Assembly (NCBI GenBank): GCA_035363255.1
Contig: DAOSES010000015.1
Span: 1-58,933 of the forward strand
Source of the DNA: Caldisericia bacterium
Lineage (GTDB): Bacteria; Caldisericota; Caldisericia; UBA6126
Length of the DNA: 58,933 nucleotides
Direction of reading: 5' to 3'
Under the pieces are notes generated by a model. It was not told the DNA's origin. It did not search any database and saw only the letters and a program-made list of their open reading frames with translations. The number at the start of each line of letters is the position of its first letter. The stretch's first letter is position 1. A program made the translations under genes and the position numbers. This document shows, piece by piece, positions 36,668 to 58,662 of the stretch.

Positions 36668-37348
36668 ATGCCAAGGGTTGTTATCATACAAGGAGCATCC
36701 GGATCTGGTAAAACCACACTCATAAAGCACTTGCTTTCATTTGCAGCGATGGAAGCCAAAAATATCGGTATCATTAAAAGTTGTGGTCATGAAATCAGCA
36801 TTGATGATGATGCTAAAAAAGATTCTTTCATATTTCAGCAGGCAGGTGCTGATAAAATCCTTTTATACCAGGGTCAACAACATACTCTTTTTAGTTATTC
36901 GGAGGATGTTTCCCTTCATGATTTAATCGATTCCTATTTTTCCGATTTTGATTTTGTATTTGTCGAAGGATTTGCTGCTTCTACTGCTTTTCCACGAATT
37001 GTGGTGATGCGTAGCACAACTACTCCAAAAACTCTCACTGACAAACACAATCTGATAGCTGTTGCCTCAGATGTCCCTTGTATATCCCCCTTTAGTGATG
37101 TTCCAGTGTTAGATCTGAATAATCCTTTAAGTATCTACAATTTCATTTGTGCCAATCCCTTTTCTTCCGCTCAGACTACCCTCAAAATTAACGGTCAGGT
37201 AGTACCTATGAATCATTTCGTAGAAAACATGCTCATCAATACCATTCTTGGTTTAGTCAAAAGCATCAAAAAAGATGACAATGAAGATACCCGTTCTCTA
37301 CAAATCAGTATTCATCTATCTCCCAACTCAAAAAAGGCCAATTCATGA
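36668..37348 (+). CDS. mobB: MobB (molybdopterin-guanine dinucleotide biosynthesis adapter, P-loop) with a C-terminal extension of about 60 aa
   Basis: N-terminus VVIIQGASGSGKTTLIKHLL. Confidence 0.75.
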   Translation: MPRVVIIQGASGSGKTTLIKHLLSFAAMEAKNIGIIKSCGHEISIDDDAKKDSFIFQQAGADKILLYQGQQHTLFSYSEDVSLHDLIDSYFSDFDFVFVEGFAASTAFPRIVVMRSTTTPKTLTDKHNLIAVASDVPCISPFSDVPVLDLNNPLSIYNFICANPFSSAQTTLKINGQVVPMNHFVENMLINTILGLVKSIKKDDNEDTRSLQISIHLSPNSKKANS

Positions 37349-38184
37349 ACTCCATCAACCACCTTCGCATATCTGTCACCCAGCGATGCAATATTAAGTG
37401 TTTTTACTGTCATCATGAAGGTCAGGAACAGATTTCCAGAGAAATGACTCCTGATGAAATCTATGTTCGTGTAAAAGATATGGCTCAGTTGGGTATAGAA
37501 TATGTCAAAATCACCGGAGGAGAACCTTTGCTTCGGGTAGATATTATGGACATCATCGCTAAAATTCGATCTCTTCCTGAAATCAAAGAAATCAGCATGA
37601 CTACCAATGGTTTTTTACTAAAAGAGTTGGCTTGCAATCTTAAAAAAGCAGGCCTGGATCGCATCAACGTAGGTTGTGATGCTCTTTATTCCAATGAATT
37701 ACCAAAAAGTATGGATATCATTCTCCCAGGAATTCAACAAGCACTTTTAGCAGGTCTTCGACCCATTAAAGTTAATATGGTCGTACTAAAAGGGCTCAAT
37801 GACCATGAAATCCCCACCATGATCCAACATGCCTCCCAAGTAGGTTTTATTCTCCAGCTTATTGAATTGATACCCAATGGCAACCCTTCTTTTGATCAAT
37901 ACCATTTGTCTTTGGACAATATCGAAAAGGACTTGGAAAAACGAGCTGATAAAGTCATGGTGCGAAGTTTACAAGGAAGAAAACAATTCCATTTGGGAAA
38001 CGCTATAATTGAAATTGTGGGACCTACCCAATCAGGTTTTTGTGAGGCTTGCAAAAAAATCCGTATCACCTCGGACGGCATGATCAAACCTTGCCTCATG
38101 CGTTCTGACAATCTGATACCTTATACTGGGATAGAGTCTATCAAAAAAGCGTTGAAACTTAAATCTCCCTATCATCCTGCATAA
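37345..38184 (+). CDS. moaA: GTP 3',8-cyclase MoaA (short, archaeal-type radical SAM)
   Basis: CNIKCFYCHHEG radical-SAM cluster and the second-cluster Cys CEACKK...C. Confidence 0.85.
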   Translation: MNSINHLRISVTQRCNIKCFYCHHEGQEQISREMTPDEIYVRVKDMAQLGIEYVKITGGEPLLRVDIMDIIAKIRSLPEIKEISMTTNGFLLKELACNLKKAGLDRINVGCDALYSNELPKSMDIILPGIQQALLAGLRPIKVNMVVLKGLNDHEIPTMIQHASQVGFILQLIELIPNGNPSFDQYHLSLDNIEKDLEKRADKVMVRSLQGRKQFHLGNAIIEIVGPTQSGFCEACKKIRITSDGMIKPCLMRSDNLIPYTGIESIKKALKLKSPYHPA

Positions 38185-44394: not shown

Positions 44395-44859
44395 ATGAGT
44401 GAGATTAATTATTCCCAAATTGACTTTGTGATCAAGCGCGAAGGATCTCAAGAGTCCTCTCTTATTCAGGTGCTAAATGGGACACAGGAAATTTTAGGAT
44501 TTCTCCCCAAAGAGGCTTTAGTTTATATTTCAGAAAAATTAAAAGTTCCCTTATCCCGAACTTATGGGATTGTCACTTTTTATAATTTTTTCAAAACTGA
44601 AAAAGATGCTGATCATGTCATAAGTATTTGCATGGGAACAGCCTGTTATGTCAAGGGTGCAAATGTTATTTTAAAAAAACTGGAAACTGAGTTAAATATT
44701 AAAAGTGGTCAAATCACTCCAGACAAGAAATTTTCAATTCGCGAAGTCCGATGCATTGGAGCATGCGGTATGGGTCCACTTATTTCAGTAGATGGAGTCG
44801 ATCTATATGGTCGAGTTCAAGTGGATATGATTCCCGAAATCCTGAACAAATACAGATGA
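44395..44859 (+). CDS. hydC: NuoE-like [2Fe-2S] hydrogenase subunit (HydC/HndA type)
   Basis: Thioredoxin-like 2Fe-2S motifs CMGTACYVKG and CIGACGMGP. Confidence 0.85.
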   Translation: MSEINYSQIDFVIKREGSQESSLIQVLNGTQEILGFLPKEALVYISEKLKVPLSRTYGIVTFYNFFKTEKDADHVISICMGTACYVKGANVILKKLETELNIKSGQITPDKKFSIREVRCIGACGMGPLISVDGVDLYGRVQVDMIPEILNKYR

Positions 44860-45404
44860 AAGAACTCTCCATGAACATTTTGGATATCTTGCACAATTCG
44901 GTGCATGCAAATCCAAAAAACATCTATCTCACAATCCTTGAAGATAGCTCAAAAGATCTACTTCAATTCACAGTCAAAGATGATGGTAAAGGTATGAGTC
45001 AGGAATATGCCTCCAAAGTTTTTGATCCTTTTACTACAAGCAGTTCTACCAAAAACGTAGGACTCGGATTGCCTTTTCTTAAGATTCAATGCGAAATGTG
45101 TAATGGATCTGCCCATTTGACAAGCAAAGAAGGCCTTGGTACAGAAGTTGAGTTCAGCTTTCAACTTTCTCATGTTGATCGCCCTCCCATGGGAGATTTG
45201 GCAGGTACTTTGACGATCATGTTCACTATGCACCATTACATTTCATTTCATTTCAAATATTGCAAAGACCATCAGTGTTTTGAGCTTAGTACTGATGAAC
45301 TTAAAAGTTTAATGCAAGATGTTCCTTTGCAACATCCAAAAGTTGCAAAAGGCATAGAAGACTATATTAATACAAATTTAACAGAATTACAGGGAGGTTA
45401 TTAA
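44856..45404 (+). CDS. HATPase_c-domain protein embedded in the hydrogenase operon
   Basis: NILDILHNSVHA...DDGKGM...GLGLPFLK. ATGA start/stop overlap with hydC. Confidence 0.7.
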   Translation: MKELSMNILDILHNSVHANPKNIYLTILEDSSKDLLQFTVKDDGKGMSQEYASKVFDPFTTSSSTKNVGLGLPFLKIQCEMCNGSAHLTSKEGLGTEVEFSFQLSHVDRPPMGDLAGTLTIMFTMHHYISFHFKYCKDHQCFELSTDELKSLMQDVPLQHPKVAKGIEDYINTNLTELQGGY

Positions 45405-45778
45405 TGGCAAAGATTAACTCATTGGAAGAACTCAGAAAACTTCGTGATCAGGCAAAAGAAACCATGACCGCACGAAGCGGAAGTGCAAAAGTTAAAATTT
45501 TTGCAAGCATGGGAACTGTTGGGATAGCAGGGGGAGCTCGTGAAGCTCTGAAAGCCATGATTGATGAGTTGGAAAAAAGAGACTTCCACGATGTTGAAAT
45601 TATTGAAAGCGGTTCCATGGGTTTGGATCGCGAAGAACCAGTCATTTCAGTCGAACGTGATGGATACATGACTACCTACGGTAGAGTTTCTCCCGATATG
45701 GCTCGTCAAATCGTTGCCCAGCACGTTATCAATGGACAAATTGTTAGCGAATGGGTGATTGCGAGGAACAAGAAATAA
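45404..45778 (+). CDS. Small HydD/HndB-like protein: thioredoxin-like ferredoxin fold with no cysteines
   Basis: It aligns to the N-terminal [2Fe-2S] domain of the following NuoF-like protein, with all four Cys positions replaced (ASMGTVGIAGGA, GSMGLDREEP). Confidence 0.6.
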   Translation: MAKINSLEELRKLRDQAKETMTARSGSAKVKIFASMGTVGIAGGAREALKAMIDELEKRDFHDVEIIESGSMGLDREEPVISVERDGYMTTYGRVSPDMARQIVAQHVINGQIVSEWVIARNKK

Positions 45779-47436
45779 TGAAAATATATCGGATTCATGC
45801 TCTAATATGCGCTGGTGGTCAATGCATCACTGCTGGCGGAGATAGTTTTGAGGAAGCATTAAAGCATGCTATTAAAGAAAAAGGGCTGGAAGACGAGATA
45901 CAAGTAGTGGAAACGGGCTGTATGGGAGCTTGTGAAAAGGGTCCCATGATGGTGGTATATCCTGAAGGAGTACTTTACATCCATCTTAAAGCGAGTGATG
46001 CGGAAGAAATTGTAAACGAGCATTTCTTAAAAGGACGTCCAATTCAGCGATTGATGTGGAAAGAAGCAGATGGAAACTTCCCCACTCTCGATCAGGTTCC
46101 ATTTTTTACTCACCAAACCAAAATTGTATTACGTAATTGCGGTCTAATTGATTCTGAAAGCATCGAAGAATATATTGCACAAGATGGTTATAGCGCTCTT
46201 GCAAAAGCTTTGTCCTCTATGACTCCTGCTGAAGTTGTCGATGAAATAAAAAAATCAGGTTTACGTGGTCGTGGAGGAGCTGGTTTTCCAACTGGAATCA
46301 AATGGGAATTAGCCTACAAACAAGATGATCCAGAAAAATATATCGTTACCAACGCTGATGAAGGTGACCCTGGAGCATATATGGATCGTTCATTGCTTGA
46401 AGGAGATCCGCATACTGTAATTGAAGGTATGGCTATTGCCGCTTATGCTATCGGAGCTTCTAAAGGATTTATTTATTGTCGCGCAGAATATCCAATTGCT
46501 ATTAAACGTCTTCAAATTGCCATTAAAAAGGCAAAACAGGCTGGTTTGTTAGGAAAAAATATCCTTGCATCTGATTTTTCCTTTGATCTTGAAATTCGAA
46601 TGGGTGCAGGAGCTTTTGTTTGTGGTGAAGAAACTGCTCTTCTCAATTCAATCGAAGGCAAGCGGGGAGAACCACGGAAAAAACCCCCTTATCCCGCCCA
46701 AAAAGGCTTATTTGGCAAACCTACTGTGATTAATAACGTTGAGACTTTTGCCAATGTCCCATTTATTATTTTGGAAGGGGCTGAGAAATTTCGCAGAATC
46801 GGTACTGAAACCAATCCTGGCACCAAAGTGTTTTCTCTTGCAGGAAAGGTTATCACTACTGGTTTGATAGAAGTACCCCTTGGGATTAGTCTTCGTAAAA
46901 TTATCTATGACATCGGTGGCGGCATCCCTGATGGCAAAAAATTCAAAGGTGCCCTTATGGGTGGACCCTCTGGTGGAGTTATACCTGCATCAAAATTGGA
47001 CACTCCCATCGATTATGAATCTTTAAATGAAATCGGCTCAATGATGGGTTCTGGTGGCTTGATTGTCATGGATGAAGACAGCTGTATGGTGGATATAGCC
47101 AAATTTTTCCTCAAATTTACCGTTGATGAAAGCTGTGGTAAATGCACTCCATGTCGCGAAGGTACACGTCAAATGCTCGAACTACTTGAGCAAATATCCT
47201 CAGGTAACGGAAAGATGTCCGATTTAGACAAACTTGAACGTCTTGCTGAGACCATTCGTATGACCTCGCTTTGTGGATTGGGTCAAAGCGCTCCTAATCC
47301 AGTTTTATCTACTATCCGATGGTTTAGAGATGAATACGAGGATCATATTAGAAATCATAAATGTACAGCCGATGTATGCAAAATGAAACCACACGATTTG
47401 GAGGTAAAGAAACGTGTCAAAAAAATCACTCATTGA
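45778..47436 (+). CDS. hydB: NuoF-like NADH-binding hydrogenase subunit HydB, with an N-terminal thioredoxin-like [2Fe-2S] domain
   Basis: CAGGQC...CMGAC, FMN/NADH motifs GLRGRGGAGFPTGIKW, N3 cluster ESCGKCTPCREG...C. There is no C-terminal 2x[4Fe-4S] domain. Confidence 0.85.
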   Translation: MKIYRIHALICAGGQCITAGGDSFEEALKHAIKEKGLEDEIQVVETGCMGACEKGPMMVVYPEGVLYIHLKASDAEEIVNEHFLKGRPIQRLMWKEADGNFPTLDQVPFFTHQTKIVLRNCGLIDSESIEEYIAQDGYSALAKALSSMTPAEVVDEIKKSGLRGRGGAGFPTGIKWELAYKQDDPEKYIVTNADEGDPGAYMDRSLLEGDPHTVIEGMAIAAYAIGASKGFIYCRAEYPIAIKRLQIAIKKAKQAGLLGKNILASDFSFDLEIRMGAGAFVCGEETALLNSIEGKRGEPRKKPPYPAQKGLFGKPTVINNVETFANVPFIILEGAEKFRRIGTETNPGTKVFSLAGKVITTGLIEVPLGISLRKIIYDIGGGIPDGKKFKGALMGGPSGGVIPASKLDTPIDYESLNEIGSMMGSGGLIVMDEDSCMVDIAKFFLKFTVDESCGKCTPCREGTRQMLELLEQISSGNGKMSDLDKLERLAETIRMTSLCGLGQSAPNPVLSTIRWFRDEYEDHIRNHKCTADVCKMKPHDLEVKKRVKKITH

Positions 47437-47842
47437 AAAGCTGCTTGACCTTCAGGATTCTCAAAAAAATACGAATCATCTCCCAAAAAAACAATTAGTT
47501 GAAATATCGAAAGAATGTCAAACTCCTCTTGCTGAAACTTATGGCGTTGCTACTTTTTATACCATGTTTTCAGTCGAACCCCGAGGAAGACATATCATTC
47601 GTATTTGCGAAAATCAGTCATGTCATATGGCTGAAGCACTTAGTGTAGTTGAATCACTTAAAAATCATCTCAATATTGAATTTGGAGAAACTACTGCCGA
47701 TGGCCTGTTTACCCTCGAGCATAGCAGTTGCCTTGGTATGTGTTCGATAGCTCCATGTATGATGATCGATGATCATCCCTACGGGAACCTTACACCCTCC
47801 AAAATTGTTGACATCATCAACAAAATTAAGGCAGGTGAATAA
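47414..47842 (+). CDS. Second NuoE-like [2Fe-2S] subunit
   Basis: CENQSCHMAE...CLGMCSIAPC. GTG start with GGAGG RBS. Confidence 0.8.
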   Translation: MSKKSLIEKLLDLQDSQKNTNHLPKKQLVEISKECQTPLAETYGVATFYTMFSVEPRGRHIIRICENQSCHMAEALSVVESLKNHLNIEFGETTADGLFTLEHSSCLGMCSIAPCMMIDDHPYGNLTPSKIVDIINKIKAGE

Positions 47843-47845
47843 TTT

Positions 47846-49516
47846 ATGAAGTTTTATAGAACACATGTATTGATTGCCAGTGATGCAAAAAGCCTGGTAC
47901 TTGGAGCAAAAAGCATTCAGGATTTGTTAATTTCTGCCTTAAAAAAATACAAACTGGAAGACGAAGTTAAGGTTATTCCAACGGGTAGCCTTGGTTTTGA
48001 AGAAACTGGTGTAGCCATCATGGTATATCCTGAAGGCATCATTTATGCACCTGTAAATCATCAAAATATTGAAGAAATTGTAGTCGAACACTTCCTCAAA
48101 GGCAGAGTTGTCAATAGTCTGAAAAAGCTACCAAAAATTTCCAACATCTCTGCTGGTTCCCTTGAAAATCAAGCAATTTTAGATGTGCAACAAAGAGTAG
48201 TCTTGGAAAATGTCGGTATTATCGATCCTGAAAACATCATGGAATACATAGCCAGAGAAGGCTATTCTGCAATTGAAAAAGCAATATTTAGCCTAAAACC
48301 AGAAAATGTGATTGAAGAACTTAAAATTTCTGAACTTCGTGGAAGAGGTGGTGCTGGCTTTCCCACAGGCTTAAAATGGGACTTTACGCGTAAAGCTATT
48401 GGAGACAAAAAATACGTTATTTGCAATGCAGATGAAGGCGAGCCTGGTACATTCAAAGATCGTGAAATCATGGAAGGAGACCCCCACAAACTCATTGAAG
48501 GGATGATGCTTGCTGGATACGCCACGGGAGCAGACTACGGATATATCTATATCCGCGGAGAGTATGCTTTATCCATAAAAAGACTTGAAAAAGCTATCGC
48601 AGATGCAAGAGAATACGGGCTTCTCGGTAAAAATATCTTAAATAGCCAGTTTAGCTTTGACTTGGAAGTTTATAAAGGCGCTGGAGCCTATGTTTGCGGG
48701 GAAGAAACCGCACTAATCGAATCAATTGAAGGCAAACGTGGCGAACCACGAAAAAAACCCCCTTACCCCCCTACCTCAGGTTTATGGGGAAAGCCTACAG
48801 TAGTCAACAACGTGGAAACTCTTGCAAATATCCCTTCCATCATAAGGAATGGTGGATTCTGGTACAAAGGGATTGGAGTTGAAGGTTCCCGCGGGACTAA
48901 GCTTTTCAGTCTAATGGGAGATTTAAAATGGAAAGGAGTGGTTGAAATTCCTTTTGGCACCCACCTTTCCAACATTATTAGCAATCTTGGCTTGGGAATA
49001 AGCAACGGCAAATCACTCAAAGGAGTCATCCTTGGAGGATCATCGGGCTTTTTAATCAAACCCGACGAGCTTGAAACTCCAGTAGATTTTCACTCCCTTG
49101 CTCAAATAGAAGCTGGTCCAGGCTCTGGATCTATTGTAGCAATGGATGAACATCGTTGTATCGTGGATATGATAAAAAATATTGCTCAATTTTTTGAGCA
49201 TGAAAGCTGTGGAAAATGCACACCATGTCGAAATGGCACGAATCAGATAGTAGCAATACTTGAACGTATCTCCTCAGGTGATGGCAAACTTGAAGACCTG
49301 CGTAATCTTGAAACACTTGGAAACACGATGGCTCAGGCTTCCTTCTGTCCTCTGGGGCAAACTGCTCCAAACATCATGATTCAAGCTATAAAAAAATACC
49401 GTAGTGAGTTTGAAGCTCATATCATCGATAAAAAATGTCCAGCTAATGTTTGCCGTTTCTATGAAGACACTTTAATAAAACAAAACAACAATCCAAGGGA
49501 GGTTGAAAATGAATGA
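47846..49516 (+). CDS. Second NuoF-like subunit, whose N-terminal thioredoxin-like domain lacks the Cys ligands
   Basis: ELRGRGGAGFPTGLKW and CGKCTPCRNG are conserved. The N-terminus reads LIASDAKSLVLGA / TGSLGFEETG where the paralog has CAGGQC / CMGAC. Confidence 0.8.
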   Translation: MKFYRTHVLIASDAKSLVLGAKSIQDLLISALKKYKLEDEVKVIPTGSLGFEETGVAIMVYPEGIIYAPVNHQNIEEIVVEHFLKGRVVNSLKKLPKISNISAGSLENQAILDVQQRVVLENVGIIDPENIMEYIAREGYSAIEKAIFSLKPENVIEELKISELRGRGGAGFPTGLKWDFTRKAIGDKKYVICNADEGEPGTFKDREIMEGDPHKLIEGMMLAGYATGADYGYIYIRGEYALSIKRLEKAIADAREYGLLGKNILNSQFSFDLEVYKGAGAYVCGEETALIESIEGKRGEPRKKPPYPPTSGLWGKPTVVNNVETLANIPSIIRNGGFWYKGIGVEGSRGTKLFSLMGDLKWKGVVEIPFGTHLSNIISNLGLGISNGKSLKGVILGGSSGFLIKPDELETPVDFHSLAQIEAGPGSGSIVAMDEHRCIVDMIKNIAQFFEHESCGKCTPCRNGTNQIVAILERISSGDGKLEDLRNLETLGNTMAQASFCPLGQTAPNIMIQAIKKYRSEFEAHIIDKKCPANVCRFYEDTLIKQNNNPREVENE

Positions 49517-51335
49517 TCAAACTGTCAATATAACCATTAATGGGAAACCATTTAGCGTAGCTGCTCATAGCACCATTCTTGAAGCTTGTGAAAAAGCTCA
49601 TATCCATGTGCCCACTTTGTGCTACCTTAAAGAGATTTGCGAAGAGGGCTCATGTGGAATCTGTGTAGTCGAAGTTGCAAAAGCAAGAACATTGCAAAGA
49701 GCTTGTATTACTGAAGTTTTTGAAGGTATGGAAATTAAAACACATACTCCCCGAGTGCTTGAAGCAAGAAAAACGGTAGCTGAACTTATTCTTGCAAATC
49801 ATCCTAAAGACTGTCTTTCCTGCGATGCAAATGAATCTTGTGATTTACGTCAACTCACTTACGATTTAGGTATTTCCGAAGTACATTTTGAAAAAACTCG
49901 TGAAAATGATTTTGAACTCGATCTCACATCTCCTTCGTTTAAACGTGACATGAATAAATGCATCCTTTGCAAACGTTGTGTTGAAGTTTGCGAAAAAGTT
50001 CAGTCGGTATCAGTTATTGACACTGCCGGACGAGGCATGAAAAATCGAATAGCAACTTTTATGGATCGTGGTATTGGTGAATCCTATTGTATTAATTGCG
50101 GTCAATGCGTTTTGGTTTGCCCCACTGGCGCTCTTATTGAACAAAGTGAAGTTGATCTCGTTTGGAAGGCTTTGGCAGATCCCAAAAAGATTATCCTGGT
50201 TGAAACAGCTCCAGCAGTGCGCGTTGCTATTGGTGAAGAATTTGGTCTTCCTGCTGGATCCCTGGTTACCAAACAAATGGTTGCTGGTCTTCGTCGATTA
50301 GGTTTCACGAAAGTATTTGATACCAATTTCTCTGCCGATTTAACCATTATGGAAGAAGGTTATGAGCTTATAGGTCGCATTAAAAAGGCACTAGGTCAAG
50401 ACAAAGGTGAATACCACGGTCCCACCAATCTTCCAATGATCACCTCTTGCTCTCCTGGTTGGATCAAATTTGCTGAACACTTTTTCCCTGGAGTTTTAGA
50501 TCATCTATCAACTTGCAAGTCACCTCAACAAATGTTTGGTGCTGTAGCAAAAACATACTACGCTGAAAAGTTAAAAGTTGATCCCAGAGATATTGTAGTC
50601 GTTTCTATCATGCCTTGTGTTGCAAAAAAATATGAAGCAAAACGCCCTGAAATGAATAGTGCTTTCCATTATTGGAAAAACAAACTTCATCTTACTGATG
50701 ATCAATCTTTCCAGGATGTTGACCATGTACTTACCACTCGTGAAGCTGCCCGTATGATGAAACAAGCAGGTATTTTCCTTCCAGATCTACCTAATGAAGA
50801 GTTTGATCAGCCTCTAGGTTCATCTACCGGTGCTGCTGTGATATTCGGTTCATCGGGCGGAGTTATGGAAGCTGCAATCCGTACTGCTTATGAAGTTATC
50901 ACAGAGTCTCCTCTGCCTAAGCTTGATTTCGAAGAAGTCCGTGGCTTGCAGGGCATTAAAAGCGCTACTATCGATATTCAAGGGCTGGGACTTAAGATTG
51001 CTGTTGCCAATGGCCTTGGAAATGCTCGAGTTCTTCTTGAACAAGTTGCCAAAGGCGAATCACCCTATCATTTCATCGAAGTAATGGCATGTCCAGGTGG
51101 TTGTATCGGTGGAGGTGGACAACCCTATCCCACTAATACCGAAGTAAGAGAAAAACGTATGAAAGCAATCTATTGTGAAGATTGTAATTTACCCATACGT
51201 AAATCCCACGAAAATCCATCTATTACTGACATTTACAAAGATTTTCTTGGACAGCCCAATGGTGAAAAATCCCACCATCTATTACATACCTCCTACACTC
51301 AACGCGACATCTACGAGCAAGAAAAAGAAAGATAA
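49509..51335 (+). CDS. hydA: [FeFe] hydrogenase catalytic subunit HydA (M3-type: 2Fe-2S + His-ligated 4Fe-4S + 2x4Fe-4S + H-domain + C-terminal SSU-like tail)
   Basis: L2 motif MPCVAKKYEA, L3 motif EVMACPGGCIGGGGQP, L1 reads TSCSPGW. N-terminal cluster motifs CYLKEICEEGSCGIC, HPKDCLSCDANESC, CILCKRCVEVC, CINCGQCVLVCP. RBS GGGAGG lies 8 nt before the ATG. Confidence 0.9.
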   Translation: MNDQTVNITINGKPFSVAAHSTILEACEKAHIHVPTLCYLKEICEEGSCGICVVEVAKARTLQRACITEVFEGMEIKTHTPRVLEARKTVAELILANHPKDCLSCDANESCDLRQLTYDLGISEVHFEKTRENDFELDLTSPSFKRDMNKCILCKRCVEVCEKVQSVSVIDTAGRGMKNRIATFMDRGIGESYCINCGQCVLVCPTGALIEQSEVDLVWKALADPKKIILVETAPAVRVAIGEEFGLPAGSLVTKQMVAGLRRLGFTKVFDTNFSADLTIMEEGYELIGRIKKALGQDKGEYHGPTNLPMITSCSPGWIKFAEHFFPGVLDHLSTCKSPQQMFGAVAKTYYAEKLKVDPRDIVVVSIMPCVAKKYEAKRPEMNSAFHYWKNKLHLTDDQSFQDVDHVLTTREAARMMKQAGIFLPDLPNEEFDQPLGSSTGAAVIFGSSGGVMEAAIRTAYEVITESPLPKLDFEEVRGLQGIKSATIDIQGLGLKIAVANGLGNARVLLEQVAKGESPYHFIEVMACPGGCIGGGGQPYPTNTEVREKRMKAIYCEDCNLPIRKSHENPSITDIYKDFLGQPNGEKSHHLLHTSYTQRDIYEQEKER

Positions 51336-51460: not shown

Positions 51461-52300
51461 ATGGAAGACAACTTTTTAAACGCTCAAGGGATTACCAAGT
51501 TTTTATCTGAAGAATCGGGCGTACAAAAAGCAAGGCTTGATTTAAAATCGCTCCTCATTCTTGGTTTTATGGCCGGAGCATTTATTTCTTTCGGAGGCAT
51601 GATCTCGGTAGTAGTTCTTACTGATAGCTCTTTTTTTATTGGTAAAGCCTTGAGTAAAATTCTAGCAGGAATGTTTTTCAGTATGGGCTTGTTGCTCGTT
51701 TTATTAAGCAATGCAGAACTTTTTACTGGTAACAGTCTTATGCTTATATCTTTATTCAACAAAAAAATTACTTTTATCAGACTCTTAAGAAATTGGTTCT
51801 TTGTCTATTTGGCAAATTTTCTTGGTTCAATGTGCCTTGCTATTTTATTGTTTTACTCAGGTATTTGGAAAAACGATCAATACCTCTATGCACAAACCAT
51901 CCATTCTATCGCACTAAAAAAAGTCAGTTTGCCTATTATTGAAGCTTTTTTTCGAGGTGTTTTATGTAATTGGCTGGTTTGTCTCGCGATATGGATGAGT
52001 TTTTCTTCCAAAGCCATTGTCAATAAATTTTTTGCTATTCTTTTACCCATAACAAGCTTTATTGCATTGAGTTTTGAGCATAGTGTGGCAAATATGTTTA
52101 TATTACCTTTTGCTTATTTGACTCAAACATCTCTTTCAACTATCTCAATTCCAACAACAACTATTCCAAGCATGATTGAGCTCAATTGGACAACTATTCT
52201 CAGTAACAATTTACTACCAGTTTCATTGGGAAACATTGTTGGCGGAGTTTTCTTTGTATCATTCATTTTTTGGCTTGCTTATTGCCATCAAAAGCTGTAA
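51461..52300 (+). CDS. focA: Formate/nitrite transporter family channel (FocA-like)
   Basis: FNT hallmark FSMGLLLVLLSNAELFTGN and six TM segments. Confidence 0.8.
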   Translation: MEDNFLNAQGITKFLSEESGVQKARLDLKSLLILGFMAGAFISFGGMISVVVLTDSSFFIGKALSKILAGMFFSMGLLLVLLSNAELFTGNSLMLISLFNKKITFIRLLRNWFFVYLANFLGSMCLAILLFYSGIWKNDQYLYAQTIHSIALKKVSLPIIEAFFRGVLCNWLVCLAIWMSFSSKAIVNKFFAILLPITSFIALSFEHSVANMFILPFAYLTQTSLSTISIPTTTIPSMIELNWTTILSNNLLPVSLGNIVGGVFFVSFIFWLAYCHQKL

Positions 52301-52320
52301 CATGAAAGAAAGAAGAATAT

Positions 52321-52758
52321 ATGCCAATTACCAACATTAGCCAAAAACATCCACAACTTCGTACCGCAATAGCTGAAGGAAGCATCCTACTTTCAGCCCA
52401 TACCATGCATCTCATCTTAGACAAGCAAATCCCCAAGGGTGATCCATTGCAAATCGCTGAAGCTGCAGCCCTATTAGCCATCAAACAAACACCCTATCTG
52501 ATTCCACATTGTCACCCCATTCCCATACATGGGGCGGAAGTTTTTTTTAGACTCTCCGATTCTACTCTTACATGCAGTGTTAAAGTTATTTCTTTTGGAG
52601 TCACAGGTATCGAAATCGAAGCCATCACAGGAGTAAGTATTGCACTTTGCACTATATGGGATTGTGTAAAATATCTTGAAAAAAATGAACATGGAGAGTA
52701 CCCAAACACTATGATTCAATCAATCAAAGTAATACAAAAAGAAAAAAAAGATGTCTAA
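52321..52758 (+). CDS. moaC: Cyclic pyranopterin monophosphate synthase MoaC
   Basis: HMHLILDKQIPKGDPLQIAEAAALLAIKQT...GVTGIEIEAITGVSIAL. Confidence 0.9.
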   Translation: MPITNISQKHPQLRTAIAEGSILLSAHTMHLILDKQIPKGDPLQIAEAAALLAIKQTPYLIPHCHPIPIHGAEVFFRLSDSTLTCSVKVISFGVTGIEIEAITGVSIALCTIWDCVKYLEKNEHGEYPNTMIQSIKVIQKEKKDV

Positions 52759-53974
52759 ATCAGGTTTTCATCAACTTCACTCTTTGAAAGAGGCTTTGGA
52801 AATACTCTATAGTATATCTACTCCAGTTCAAGAAACTGAGTTCAGTCTTGATCAAGCATTAAACAAAATCTGTAGCAGAGATATAAACGCTCCTATTGCT
52901 GTGCCTTCTTTTTCAAAATCAGCTATGGATGGTTATGCAGTTTTATCCTCTGACACTTACTATGCCAGTCCTACTAGACCAATCGCTCTTGAGCTGATTG
53001 GGGAGATACTTCCAGGCGAAGACACAAAGCAAGTGATTTCTACGGGACAATGCATTGAAATAGCTACTGGTGCCAAAGTTCCTGAAGGAGCAGATGGTAT
53101 TGTAATGGTTGAACATACTGAAAAAGAAGGCACTCAAGTGAAAGTTTTCAGTTCAACGGCCCCTGGTCACCATATTATCCAAGCTGGATCGGATATCTCA
53201 AAAAACCAGTTAGTAGTAAAAAAAGGTACCAGACTCACTGCAAGGCATACTTCTCTCTTGTCAGGGCTTGGCATGGAGAAAATTCATTGCTTCCAAGGCC
53301 TTGTTGTCGCTGTAGCCTCTACTGGCAACGAAATAGTACGACCTCCCAATCCGCTTGCTTCAGCTCAATCATATGATATTAATGCTAGAGCCCTAATTGA
53401 TTCTATTAGGGAATATGGCTGTGTCGCCAAAGATTTTGGTGTAATCGTGGATGAGGCTAAAGAAATTGAAAAAACCATTCTTGAGATGGTCAAACAAGCT
53501 GATATTGTAGTTATTAGCGGTGGGTCTTCGCTGGGTACAAAAGATTTAATACTCGAGCAGATTAACAAAATAGGACAAGTCTTAGTGCATGGAATTGCAG
53601 TTAAGCCAGGCAAACCAACTCTAATAGGTAAAATTCAAGATAAACTAATCTTAGGCCTCCCTGGTCATCCCGCTTCTGCATTGTCCAATTTTTTCATTCT
53701 GATAAAGCCATATCTGGATTTTTTGTTTCAAGTTCATACCTCGATTACTCCGTTTATAGATGCTCGATTAACTTGTAAAATTGCCTCTACTATTGGAAGG
53801 TTTGAATTTATCCCTGTACAAGTTCAAGAATGCGACTCTGAATTCTTGGCGCTTCCTCAACTAAAAGGTTCGAGTGCAATTTCTCCGATGATGAATAGTG
53901 ATGGTTATATCAAGATTAACGAAAACATAGAAGTTTTGGATAAAAATACCTTGGTTCGAGTTTTTTTGTTTTAA
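52751..53974 (+). CDS. moeA: Molybdopterin molybdenumtransferase MoeA
   Basis: FSKSAMDGYAV...ISGGSSLGTKD...GLPGHPASAL. Confidence 0.85.
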   Translation: MSKSGFHQLHSLKEALEILYSISTPVQETEFSLDQALNKICSRDINAPIAVPSFSKSAMDGYAVLSSDTYYASPTRPIALELIGEILPGEDTKQVISTGQCIEIATGAKVPEGADGIVMVEHTEKEGTQVKVFSSTAPGHHIIQAGSDISKNQLVVKKGTRLTARHTSLLSGLGMEKIHCFQGLVVAVASTGNEIVRPPNPLASAQSYDINARALIDSIREYGCVAKDFGVIVDEAKEIEKTILEMVKQADIVVISGGSSLGTKDLILEQINKIGQVLVHGIAVKPGKPTLIGKIQDKLILGLPGHPASALSNFFILIKPYLDFLFQVHTSITPFIDARLTCKIASTIGRFEFIPVQVQECDSEFLALPQLKGSSAISPMMNSDGYIKINENIEVLDKNTLVRVFLF

Positions 53975-54465
53975 TGAAGAAGTACTTGTTAGGCATTCTT
54001 GTTATATCAGACAGCTCTTTTAATAAAACTCGAATTAGCACTACTCAAGACCTTATCATTGATCATCTTCATGACTTGTTTGATATATCGGTTGTTAAAA
54101 TTATACCCGACCATCCACTTGAAATTGAAACTACCTTGTCTGAATGGGCTGACAATCTCCATCTCGATTTAATACTCAGCACAGGTGGAACTGGAGCAAG
54201 TCCAAGGGATTTTACGCCAGAAGCAAGCATGAAGATATTTGATAAAGAGATACCCGGTATTTCTGAGTACTTAAGAATAAAAACAATCGAAAAAACTCCC
54301 TACGCTTGTTTATCCAGAGGAAAATCAGGTAGTCGCAAGCAAACCTTGATTATAAATCTTCCGGGTAGCTCTAAAGCAGTGAAAGAGTATCTTGAACTTC
54401 TCCAACCCATCCTTGGTCATGCCATAGATATCATTCAAGGGAAAGTAAATCGTTGTGGAGGGTAA
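53974..54465 (+). CDS. mogA: Molybdopterin adenylyltransferase MogA/MoaB
   Basis: LILSTGGTGASPRDFTPEA. Confidence 0.8.
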   Translation: MKKYLLGILVISDSSFNKTRISTTQDLIIDHLHDLFDISVVKIIPDHPLEIETTLSEWADNLHLDLILSTGGTGASPRDFTPEASMKIFDKEIPGISEYLRIKTIEKTPYACLSRGKSGSRKQTLIINLPGSSKAVKEYLELLQPILGHAIDIIQGKVNRCGG

Positions 54466-54468
54466 GGT

Positions 54469-54717
54469 ATGAATAATATACATGTTCTTCTCTTTGCGGG
54501 TATTCGTGAAGGCATTGGTCTTGACAAGCTAATTTTGAGCTATCCTCAAGGTATTACTTTGGGTCAACTCATCCAGGATATGGAAACAACATATCCTCAT
54601 CTTTTGCGCTTGTTCAGATCTTGTCAATTCATTGTTAATTGTCAGGAAATCCAAGTGGATTATATCCTACAGGATAATGATGAGGTTGCAATTCTTCCTC
54701 CCTTGGGAGGGGGTTAA
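54469..54717 (+). CDS. moaD: Molybdopterin synthase sulfur-carrier subunit MoaD
   Basis: 82-aa ubiquitin-like protein ending in GG (…LPPLGGG). Confidence 0.7.
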   Translation: MNNIHVLLFAGIREGIGLDKLILSYPQGITLGQLIQDMETTYPHLLRLFRSCQFIVNCQEIQVDYILQDNDEVAILPPLGGG

Positions 54718-54723
54718 AGATTT

Positions 54724-55131
54724 ATGCTCAAGCTTCAAAAAGATCCTCTTGATCTTCAGGAATACTTTAAAAGCATCAATGCAAGCATTGGGGCTTGTTT
54801 ATTTTTTGCAGGCATCGTCAGAAATGCTCCGGAAGATCAACAAGTTCAAGGGATCGAATATCATGCTTATGACAAGTTATGCTTTCACAAAGAAAAGCAT
54901 TTTGAGCAGAATTTCAAGTCTCTTTTTCCTGACAAATCTTATCATATCGTTCACCGTTTGGGTTATGTGCCAGTCAAAGAAACTTCCTTAATAGTTACGC
55001 TATTCTCACCTCATCGCAAAAAGTCATTTTCTTCTCTTGAGTTTATCGTCGAATGGATCAAATCGGATCTTCCAGTGTGGAAAAAAATCATTCATTGTGA
55101 TGGCAGTAGTCATTGGAAAGCCAACTTTTAA
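54724..55131 (+). CDS. moaE: Molybdopterin synthase catalytic subunit MoaE
   Basis: Size and position after moaD, with a pattern resembling the MoaE family (GIVRN...HRLGYVPV). Confidence 0.8.
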   Translation: MLKLQKDPLDLQEYFKSINASIGACLFFAGIVRNAPEDQQVQGIEYHAYDKLCFHKEKHFEQNFKSLFPDKSYHIVHRLGYVPVKETSLIVTLFSPHRKKSFSSLEFIVEWIKSDLPVWKKIIHCDGSSHWKANF

Positions 55132-56838: not shown

Positions 56839-58662
56839 TTACGTCATTTTTGAAGTACAAGACTGATTTATTTTATCATACATCTCCATGATGATGTTTG
56901 CGATATCTTCTTTACACTTTATTGTTGTGTTTAATAAATGAAAATCAGAACGTTGTCTCAACCAACTTAACTGACGCTTTGCATATCTACGTGTGTTTTG
57001 ATTCATCATCTCTATTGCTTCTTTTAATGGTACTTTTTCTTGCTTTGCATTAATCAACTCACGGTACCCATGAGCCTTAATTCTCTCGATAGAGGAAACA
57101 TAGTTGTGTTGAATCAACCAATCAATTTCGTTCAACAAACCTTTGCTTAGCATGCCTTCAGTGCGCAGATGTATGCGTTGATATAATTGTTCCAAGTTTT
57201 GTATCAAACCAATTTTGATGTAAAAATAGGGCAAAGCTGTGCTTTCTTTTTTTTGCAGGTCGCTCATTTTCTTTTTACTTAAAATAATTACCTCAAGAGC
57301 TCTTATGATCCTTTTTTCATCGTTTGGATGGATCTTCTGTGCGATTTCTGGATCCAAAAGAGCTAGCTCTTGATGGAGCTGCAGCAAACTTTCTTTTTTG
57401 ACTCTTTCTCTAAGTTGATTTCTTAGCAAAGGATCTGAAGTATTTTCTTGATCAAACAAACCATCAATGATTGAGCTTAAATATAGATTACTACCTCCAG
57501 CTAAAATGGGGAAACTACCACGATTCAAGATATCTTTTATGGCTTTTATTGCATCTTTACGAAATGACGCAACCGAGTACTCATCTTTTGGGTCAACGTA
57601 ATCCACAAGATGATACATGGGATAGCTTTTGCATTCAGGTTTAGCAGTACCTATGGTTAAATGCTGGTAGATTTGCATGGAATCAACATTGATAATCTCA
57701 GCATTTCTTGTTTGAGCAATTATCTCGGCTATGGAAGATTTACCAATCGAAGTAGGTCCATATATAACTAGCAATGGAAAAGAATCTGGAGTAGTTTTAT
57801 CTCTAACTTTCACTATTCTTCGTACCGTCTCATCGATTATATAGGTGGGTGATGAAGTTCCAGAAAGAATAGCGATGCTTTTCGCTTTTTCGAGTGCGCT
57901 TGATAATGCTTCACTAAAAGGATGCTTTTCGTCGCTTTGAATAAGGAAAGTATTGGAGTTACATGGTTTAGCAAGTTCAAACAAACTATAGGTGTTTGAG
58001 CTTTTTGCGTCACCAACCACAAAAACACAATCACTTATTTTTGCAAACTCAAGAGCATCATTCTGGCGTTTAATGACTGTGGGGCAAATAGTTTCATATA
58101 TGTTTAGTTGATCAAGATTTAGCGATTGAAGATAGTTTTTGATTTGATGGAACACTATACTGCTTGCGGTAGTCTGGGAAAGAAAGGCAATATTCCCCTT
58201 TGGAAGTTCGAAATGGTGAACTTGCTCTAAGTTTTCAACAATAGTCACTTTGGAAGAATCAATATAGCTTACTGCGCCAACGATTTCTGGATGGTTTTTT
58301 TTTCCCAGGAGCAGTATGCATTGGTGGTTTTTAGCAACATTCATAAGGAGTTTTCTAAGTTTTATGACTACAGGACAAGTACGATCAATAATATCAGAGG
58401 TTATTTTCTTCAGTTGTTCTTCTGATTCTTTTGTGATCCCGTGAGCAGGAATAATGACTCTTGTATCGCAAGAAATTTCTTCAAGTGAATACACTGTTCT
58501 GACGCCATTTAGTGCCAATTCGTTTTGAACACGTTCGTTGTGAATCAGTTTTCCAAAAATTACTACTTCTTTGCCTGGTTCGATGCTTGATACGGTAGAC
58601 CAAATTGCATTTCTAACCCCTTCGCACAAACCAATATGCTCATAACAAGTTATTTTATCCAT
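56839..58662 (-). CDS. ispH-miaA: Bifunctional fusion: 4-hydroxy-3-methylbut-2-enyl diphosphate reductase (IspH/LytB) N-terminal half + tRNA dimethylallyltransferase (MiaA) C-terminal half
   Basis: The IspH half carries the three cluster Cys (GLCEGV, TCPVV, ICPTV) plus HN, SQTT and GTSSP motifs over about residues 1-285. The MiaA half has the P-loop GPTSIGKSS and VDSMQIYQHLTIGTAKP over about residues 295-607. Confidence 0.85.
   Translation of the reverse strand: MDKITCYEHIGLCEGVRNAIWSTVSSIEPGKEVVIFGKLIHNERVQNELALNGVRTVYSLEEISCDTRVIIPAHGITKESEEQLKKITSDIIDRTCPVVIKLRKLLMNVAKNHQCILLLGKKNHPEIVGAVSYIDSSKVTIVENLEQVHHFELPKGNIAFLSQTTASSIVFHQIKNYLQSLNLDQLNIYETICPTVIKRQNDALEFAKISDCVFVVGDAKSSNTYSLFELAKPCNSNTFLIQSDEKHPFSEALSSALEKAKSIAILSGTSSPTYIIDETVRRIVKVRDKTTPDSFPLLVIYGPTSIGKSSIAEIIAQTRNAEIINVDSMQIYQHLTIGTAKPECKSYPMYHLVDYVDPKDEYSVASFRKDAIKAIKDILNRGSFPILAGGSNLYLSSIIDGLFDQENTSDPLLRNQLRERVKKESLLQLHQELALLDPEIAQKIHPNDEKRIIRALEVIILSKKKMSDLQKKESTALPYFYIKIGLIQNLEQLYQRIHLRTEGMLSKGLLNEIDWLIQHNYVSSIERIKAHGYRELINAKQEKVPLKEAIEMMNQNTRRYAKRQLSWLRQRSDFHLLNTTIKCKEDIANIIMEMYDKINQSCTSKMT

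Follow-up and report, generated by a model that had tools for sequence, protein, structure and literature searches.

A serine at the [4Fe-4S]H ligand position of a Caldisericia [FeFe] hydrogenase is a widespread natural state already known from an active enzyme

Hydrogenase gene cluster

The window analysed here, a stretch of 58,933 nucleotides of contig DAOSES010000015.1 from a Caldisericia bacterium (assembly GCA_035363255.1), possesses a hydrogenase gene cluster in the order hydC1, a HATPase_c ORF, a small ferredoxin-like ORF, hydB1, hydC2, hydB2, and finally hydA. The genes encoding NuoF-like HydB and NuoE-like HydC adjoin hydA and are present in two copies each (44395-49516).

44395..44859, + strand: hydC1, NuoE/HoxE-like [2Fe-2S] subunit
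45751..47436, + strand: hydB1, NuoF-like subunit; N-terminal 2Fe-2S cysteines present; AYMD and GGPSG motifs
47414..47842, + strand: hydC2, NuoE-like thioredoxin-like [2Fe-2S] subunit (NuoE-family NCBIfam models, PF01257)
47846..49516, + strand: hydB2, NuoF-like flavoprotein subunit; TFKD and GGSSG motifs
49503..51335, + strand: hydA, catalytic subunit of a multimeric group A [FeFe] hydrogenase; 610 aa from TTG

Genes for a formate/nitrite transporter and for molybdopterin biosynthesis border the cluster, and no formate dehydrogenase gene was found within the window.

Matched by motif to the HydB signatures of Losey et al. (2020), Ala/Glu...Met at the NADH site and GGPSG, HydB1 (GAYMD and GGPSG) looks bifurcating-like at these positions, and HydB2 (GTFKD and GGSSG) looks non-bifurcating. 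No cysteine occurs in the first 100 residues of HydB2. The HydB of the electron-bifurcating HydABC of A. woodii (599 aa) carries a C-terminal 2x[4Fe-4S] domain, which was proposed as the site of ferredoxin reduction, whereas both HydB copies here lack it: no CxxCxxCxxxC motif follows the NuoF cluster, no Fer4 Pfam match was obtained, tails of 53 and 55 aa follow the NuoF 4Fe-4S site, and A. woodii HydB can be aligned as far as residue 545 of its 599. A HydB with fewer Fe-S domains is also found in the non-bifurcating NADH-dependent enzymes Hyd1ABC of Syntrophomonas wolfei and HydAB of Syntrophus aciditrophicus (Losey et al. 2020, PMC7311640), which the present complex further resembles in the Thr/Lys pattern of HydB2 (ADEGEPGTFKD, without GGPSG) and in a HydA that passes the group A6 model. 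However, HydB1 has the bifurcating-type Ala/Met pattern together with GGPSG.

Architecture of HydA and its L1 motif

The hydA ORF (49503-51335, + strand) has a translation that contains NLPMITSCSPGWIKFAEHFFPGVLDHLSTCKSPQQ; the database copy of the protein (P0001) is 608 aa long, with the start presumably being the ATG at 49509. Pfam domains Fer2_4, NADH-G_4Fe-4S_3, two Fer4, Fe_hyd_lg_C, and Fe_hyd_SSU were detected, the H-domain being matched by PF02906 (Fe_hyd_lg_C, E 4.9e-93) and PF02256 (Fe_hyd_SSU, E 2.5e-24), while no PAS or other sensor domain was found by the Pfam search. HydA scores 864 bits against NCBIfam NF040763 ('NADH-dependent [FeFe] hydrogenase, group A6'; cut-off 765) and 512.6 bits against TIGR02512 (cut-off 406). 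Among PDB entries, A. woodii HydA1 matches best (7q4v, E 5e-187), with 49% identity over 600 residues. The motifs surrounding the H-cluster are located as follows, with equivalent residues assigned by alignment.

50349..50378, + strand: proton-transfer motif MEEGYELIGR, aa 283-292; equivalents of CpI E279, E282, and R286
50442..50462, + strand: L1 motif TSCSPGW, aa 314-320; codons acc tct tgc tct cct ggt tgg
50448..50450, + strand: Cys316, aligned with the proton-relay Cys299 of CpI
50451..50453, + strand: Ser317 (TCT), at the [4Fe-4S]H ligand site (CpI Cys300, T. kivui Cys299, A. woodii Ser301)
50514..50516, + strand: Cys338 (TGC) in LSTCKSPQQ, 21 residues past Ser317; equivalent to CpI Ala321, A. 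woodii Cys322, Desulfovibrio Cys200, and Chlamydomonas Cys136
50610..50636, + strand: L2 motif MPCVAKKYE, aa 370-378, with ligand Cys372 and Lys375
51078..51125, + strand: L3 motif EVMACPGGCIGGGGQP, aa 526-541, with Cys530 and Cys534

The CpI segments FTSCCPGW (C299/C300) and LSSAKSPQQ fix these equivalences in the alignment. A previous sequence-only reading of this DNA had reported TSCSPGW in L1, a serine at the ligand position, and canonical L2 and L3 motifs; the codons and their translation bear out the first, the equivalence of Ser317 with CpI C300 the second, and MPCVAKKYE and EVMACPGGCIGGGGQP the third, as both fit the consensus MPCxxKxxE and ExMxCxxGCxxGGGQP. The three other cubane cysteines (Cys372, Cys530, Cys534) are kept alongside Ser317. 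Together with Ser336, the counterpart of S319 in CpI, and Cys316, MEEGYELIGR completes a proton-transfer pathway equivalent to E279, E282, R286, S319, and C299 of CpI. HydA is thus a group A catalytic subunit; its L1 departs from TSCCPxW, yet this departure is a documented natural state of the family.

Among the known hydrogenases, A. woodii HydA1 (from the electron-bifurcating HydABC; 7Q4V, 7Q4W, 8A5E; PMC10021017) shares with the present HydA the domain architecture, TSCSPGW, L2, L3, and a cysteine at +21 (HLSSCKSPQ), whereas the present HydA has two additional short insertions, at about aa 297-307 and 384-397. T. kivui HydA1 (8A6T) and CpI (3C8Y, 4XDC) have the fold family, accessory-cluster domains, relay cysteine, L2, and L3 in common with it; however, both carry TSCCPxW with a cysteine ligand and an alanine at +21 (STARSPQQ and SSAKSPQQ, respectively), where the present HydA has serine and cysteine. 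The periplasmic Desulfovibrio enzyme (1HFE, 1E08) and Chlamydomonas reinhardtii HydA1 (3LX4, 2N0S) possess the +21 cysteine as well, but keep the ligand cysteine of TSCCPGW.

Previous reports of the serine variant

According to Katsyv et al. (2023, PMC10021017), Ser301 replaces the cysteine ligand in A. woodii HydA1, with normal infrared signature and activity. Kertess et al. (2017, PMC5855289) refer to Winkler et al. (2013) for a serine at this position in about 20% of the putative hydrogenase sequences analysed. TSCSPGW was also mentioned in passing in a 2013 Melainabacteria paper, which was the sole match to a literature search for the TSCSP motif; a corresponding search for Cys200 of the Desulfovibrio enzyme returned no match. 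The TSCSPGW variant is therefore already known and widespread, and it is represented by a solved, active enzyme from A. woodii.

The engineered counterpart in Chlamydomonas behaves differently. In HydA1 C115S, cubane occupancy is low, the [2Fe] subcluster is not inserted, and activity falls below 1 unit (Kertess et al. 2017, PMC5855289), so that tolerance of serine depends on context.

Distribution and codon usage of the serine

HydA genes were collected from 80 GTDB species-representative genomes and from two contigs with the exact protein. Serine occupies the ligand position in 87 of the 95 HydA genes found (hereafter Ser-type), distributed over about a dozen phyla, including Caldisericota, Omnitrophota, Bacteroidota, Ignavibacteriota, Spirochaetota, Bacillota, Armatimonadota, Synergistota, Calditrichota, Margulisiibacteriota, and others; the Bacillota among them include the cultured Caloranaerobacter azorensis, Christensenella sp., and Anaeromonas frigoriresistens. 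In a second set of 130 representatives, a sample biased towards the query, 18 are Ser-type. The neighbouring relay cysteine (column of Cys316) is present in every Ser-type sequence of the alignment (100%) and in 99% of the Cys-type ones.

All six serine codons are in use at this site among the genome loci (TCT 29, TCA 18, TCG 15, TCC 4, AGC 13, AGT 8), which points to long-term purifying selection for serine; judged from these sequences, serine at the CpI-300 position is evidently maintained by such selection across phyla.

Both serine codon families occur within the clade (TCN 64, AGY 21), and TGY (Cys) sequences are nested among the Ser-type ones, with about 10 codon-family switches on the NJ tree. 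TCY and AGY codons are each one step away from TGY. The simplest path between the two serine families is thus repeated Ser-Cys-Ser interconversion, implying, as far as a crude NJ tree can be trusted, that serine and cysteine may be close to interchangeable in this background.

Elsewhere, the HydB encoded beside a Ser-type HydA may be of the fully bifurcating type (38 ORFs with two ferredoxin motifs) or short, so the serine variant does not go with a single mode of coupling.

The cysteine at +21

The sequence-only reading had placed an extra, non-canonical cysteine at 50514-50516. Its location stands, but the residue is not unusual, being the commonest one at this position in group A enzymes: it is the majority state among the canonical TSCCP representatives (62/112), for instance in Desulfovibrio (1HFE/1E08, TSCCPGW...STCKSP) and Chlamydomonas HydA1 (TSCCPGW...SSCKSPQ).

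Covariation of TSCSP with the downstream STCK, which had been proposed as a check, was evaluated in an anchored MAFFT alignment of 130 sequences, each representing a 50%-identity cluster, with the residues extracted from the alignment. Serine occurs with the +21 cysteine in 13 representatives and without it in five, and cysteine at the ligand position occurs with it in 62 and without it in 50. Between Ser (CpI 300) and Cys (CpI 321) there is no significant association (odds ratio 2.1, Fisher p = 0.21), and covariation of the serine with Cys338 was rejected on this basis. Four Ser-type representatives (P0123, P0125, P0157, P0184) have alanine at +21 with normal L1, L2, and L3, and so does the Ser-type enzyme of a Synergistaceae genome (L046), which looks intact.

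No other column takes the place of a partner. Besides 316, 338, 372, 530, and 534, no further Cys-rich columns were found for the Ser group in the alignment, nor was any column strictly coupled to the serine. The best discriminators between Ser and Cys types are Phe versus Ile/Leu/Val before TSC, Gly after Pro, and Trp221, all with exceptions, and on the sequences compared they look phylogenetic. On a rough NJ tree, parsimony requires about 12 steps at the Ser/Cys site and about 30 at the +21 site.

These data bear on the possibility of a ligand swap, in which the thiolate of the +21 cysteine (Cys338, or Cys322 in A. woodii) would be the true fourth ligand of [4Fe-4S]H, the serine would serve only as a spacer, and the cryo-EM assignment would be wrong. 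The +21 cysteine is indeed found in 84% of Ser-type sequences in the alignment and in 86 of the 87 Ser-type genes at the genome loci, a natural intermediate with both cysteines exists and would permit the swap, and Cys322 is not discussed in the main text of the A. woodii paper (PMC10021017). However, the same cysteine is as much at home in TSCCP enzymes, including those of Desulfovibrio and Chlamydomonas, and in these two the four ligands are canonical; its association with serine is insignificant. The intact Ser-type enzymes with alanine at +21 have no other conserved cysteine that might stand in for it. Moreover, wild-type Chlamydomonas HydA1 already has Cys136, so its C115S variant recreates the combination of serine and +21 cysteine; this variant is inactive with low cubane occupancy, and the +21 cysteine is therefore insufficient to rescue the serine. 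We thus regard the swap as improbable. From the residue states in the present alignment, their conservation, and the uncoupled behaviour of the two sites, Cys338 is a common residue at +21 and appears not to be a specific partner or compensating ligand of Ser317.

Proposed H-cluster arrangement and alternative explanations

Taken together, HydA most likely serves as catalytic subunit in a multimeric NAD(H)-linked [FeFe] hydrogenase of group A, belonging to the very large Ser-ligand clade of the A. woodii type and possessing a functional H-cluster. In the proposed arrangement, [4Fe-4S]H would be held by Cys372, Cys530, and Cys534, the last of which aligns with the bridging Cys503 of CpI, while Ser317 would occupy the fourth coordination position. 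In the cryo-EM model of A. woodii HydABC (roughly 3 Angstrom), whose HydA1 is 49% identical, the cluster is built in this way, and serine ligation, a normal infrared signature (FTIR), and activity would all be carried over from the literature on that enzyme at this level of homology. Protons would still be passed to the azadithiolate bridge by Cys316, which the intact Glu/Ser/Glu/Arg pathway supplies, and Cys338 would be an ordinary second-shell residue, one that many all-cysteine enzymes also have. Because the relay cysteine and the proton pathway are intact, HydA should turn over H2 normally, its expression and maturation being assumed; hydE, hydF, and hydG are absent from the window. Of the options raised by the sequence-only reading, a subclass-specific variant thus survives in the form with serine at the ligand position, as in the A. 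woodii HydABC structure, and not in the form with the displaced cysteine as ligand.

Another of those options, that HydA is by nature an impaired or a sensory (regulatory) homolog whose H-cluster is weakened, has in its favour an altered first-sphere ligand, a dead engineered equivalent in Chlamydomonas, and the histidine-kinase-type ATPase ORFs in the operon. However, HydA has neither a sensor domain such as PAS nor an altered proton-relay position, the features expected of the sensory groups C and D; the gene is embedded among those of NuoE/NuoF-type redox partners; the proton pathway, L2, and L3 are preserved along with relay Cys316; full activity is known for the A. woodii enzyme, which shares the motif; and the serine is under purifying selection across phyla. 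An impaired or sensory role is accordingly considered very improbable.

A shift of register, in which Cys316 would ligate the cubane and another residue or water would relay protons, recalls the speculation of Kertess et al. (PMC5855289) that the neighbouring Cys114 might substitute as ligand in Chlamydomonas C115A. Such a shift is hard to reconcile with the A. woodii enzyme, for which Ser301 is described in the ligand site and both infrared signature and activity are normal, since normal activity needs the relay cysteine (mutation of Cys299 yields inactive enzyme). Cys316 is also invariant in both Ser-type and Cys-type enzymes, which fits a role that has not changed, and we give this shift hardly any credence.

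Authenticity of the codon was addressed with the closest relatives. A protein identical to HydA, from a Caldisericia MAG (P0001), is present on 10 contigs from different sources, including a 59,077-bp JGI metagenome contig and an independent Logan assembly of SRR29823660 (L002), in which the codon at Ser317 is TCT as in the window. TSCSPGW and, after it, [ST]CKSPQQ are present in every one of the 120 nearest homologs, which share 62-100% identity and belong to Caldisericia, Cryosericum, Omnitrophota, Elusimicrobia, and other lineages, relatives at 82% and 89% identity being Ser-type as well; these homologs are thus not the orthologs with TSCCP and no downstream cysteine that had been named as evidence against the variant. 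Although a single base separates TCT from TGT, these identical independent assemblies and the clade-wide serine encoded by six codons refute a sequencing or assembly error at a true TGT codon, which can be set aside with near certainty.

Implications for the hydrogenase family

The value of this result lies mainly in annotation. Genes with TSCSPGW should not be annotated as pseudogenes, sensory paralogs, or sequencing errors on account of this motif, nor should the downstream cysteine be taken for a compensating ligand. Its value as a discovery is small, the variant being documented, common, and solved in an active enzyme.

A bolder reading, which we hold to be unlikely, is that multimeric hydrogenases coupled to NAD(H) might tune their H-cluster by a selected serine at the first cubane-ligand position. 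Such a serine would shift the potential or protonation of [4Fe-4S]H and would be enabled by a permissive background with nearly free Cys/Ser interconversion, with Cys338 perhaps being an alternate ligand in some redox states. Apart from this reading, the puzzle already recognised is that a serine ligand is tolerated in this clade but lethal to the activity of the Chlamydomonas enzyme. The comparative data narrow it slightly: serine appears to have no obligatory partner residue, Cys/Ser switches seem to have occurred repeatedly, and Ser-type enzymes exist with alanine at +21.

Genomic neighbourhood of hydA

Two sets of hydrogenase partner genes are present upstream of hydA, encoding NuoE-like (hydC1, hydC2) and NuoF-like (hydB1, hydB2) subunits, molybdopterin biosynthesis genes lie on both sides of the hydrogenase genes, and a formate/nitrite transporter gene lies downstream. 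The features of the window are arranged as follows.

36668-38184: mobB and moaA, upstream, past a pyrimidine-biosynthesis block
44395-49516: hydC1, HATPase ORF, ferredoxin-like ORF, hydB1, hydC2 and hydB2, in this order, followed by hydA
49503-51335 (+): hydA as the mechanical ORF of 610 aa, whose TTG start at 49503 falls within the last bases of hydB2
51461-55131: formate/nitrite transporter gene with moaC, moeA, mog/moaB, moaD and moaE, directly downstream of hydA
56839-58662 (-): ORF of 607 aa, with a LytB/IspH domain at aa 4-282 and a MiaA-type IPP transferase domain at aa 329-569

The identical database copy of HydA (P0001) has 608 aa, which fits a start at ATG 49509. Both HydB1 and HydB2 are without the C-terminal 2x[4Fe-4S] domain. 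HydB1 retains the GAYMD and GGPSG signatures; HydB2 carries GTFKD and GGSSG, which are of the non-bifurcating type, and its N-terminal 100 residues, the region of the would-be [2Fe-2S] site, contain no Cys, the N-terminal cysteines being lost there. The partner genes of a Caldisericota relative (L033) are arranged as in the window.

The window was found to encode neither a formate dehydrogenase nor the catalytic subunit of any other molybdoenzyme. The 607-aa ORF appears to be a fusion of a DMAPP-making enzyme with an enzyme that uses DMAPP on tRNA.

HydA insertions and the two ligand types

Compared with the HydA enzymes of A. woodii, T. kivui and Clostridium pasteurianum (CpI), HydA of the window carries two short insertions.

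50391-50423 (approximate): insertion 1, ALGQDKGEYHG, aa ~297-307, immediately preceding L1
50652-50693 (approximate): insertion 2, ~14 residues, aa ~384-397, C-terminal to L2

The column region of insertion 2 is gapped in ~97% of the Cys-type sequences (canonical TSCCP in L1), whereas only 48% of the Ser-type sequences, with Ser at the cubane-ligand position, are gapped there.

The best representative match, P0121, which lies outside the window, is a predicted protein of 4122 aa with seven H-domain matches in tandem, whose L1 motifs were left unassigned by motif parsing; it may be a multi-hydrogenase polyprotein, eukaryotic or mis-assembled.

Two hydA genes, at ~6.9 kb and ~11.3 kb, were found in each of the Omnitrophota loci L004, L005, L006, L014, L016, L037 and L042. 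The first is Ser-type (ITSCSPGW), and the second, ~4.5 kb downstream, carries the canonical IT[TS]CCPSW together with SSCKSPHE; therefore, one gene neighbourhood houses both ligand types.
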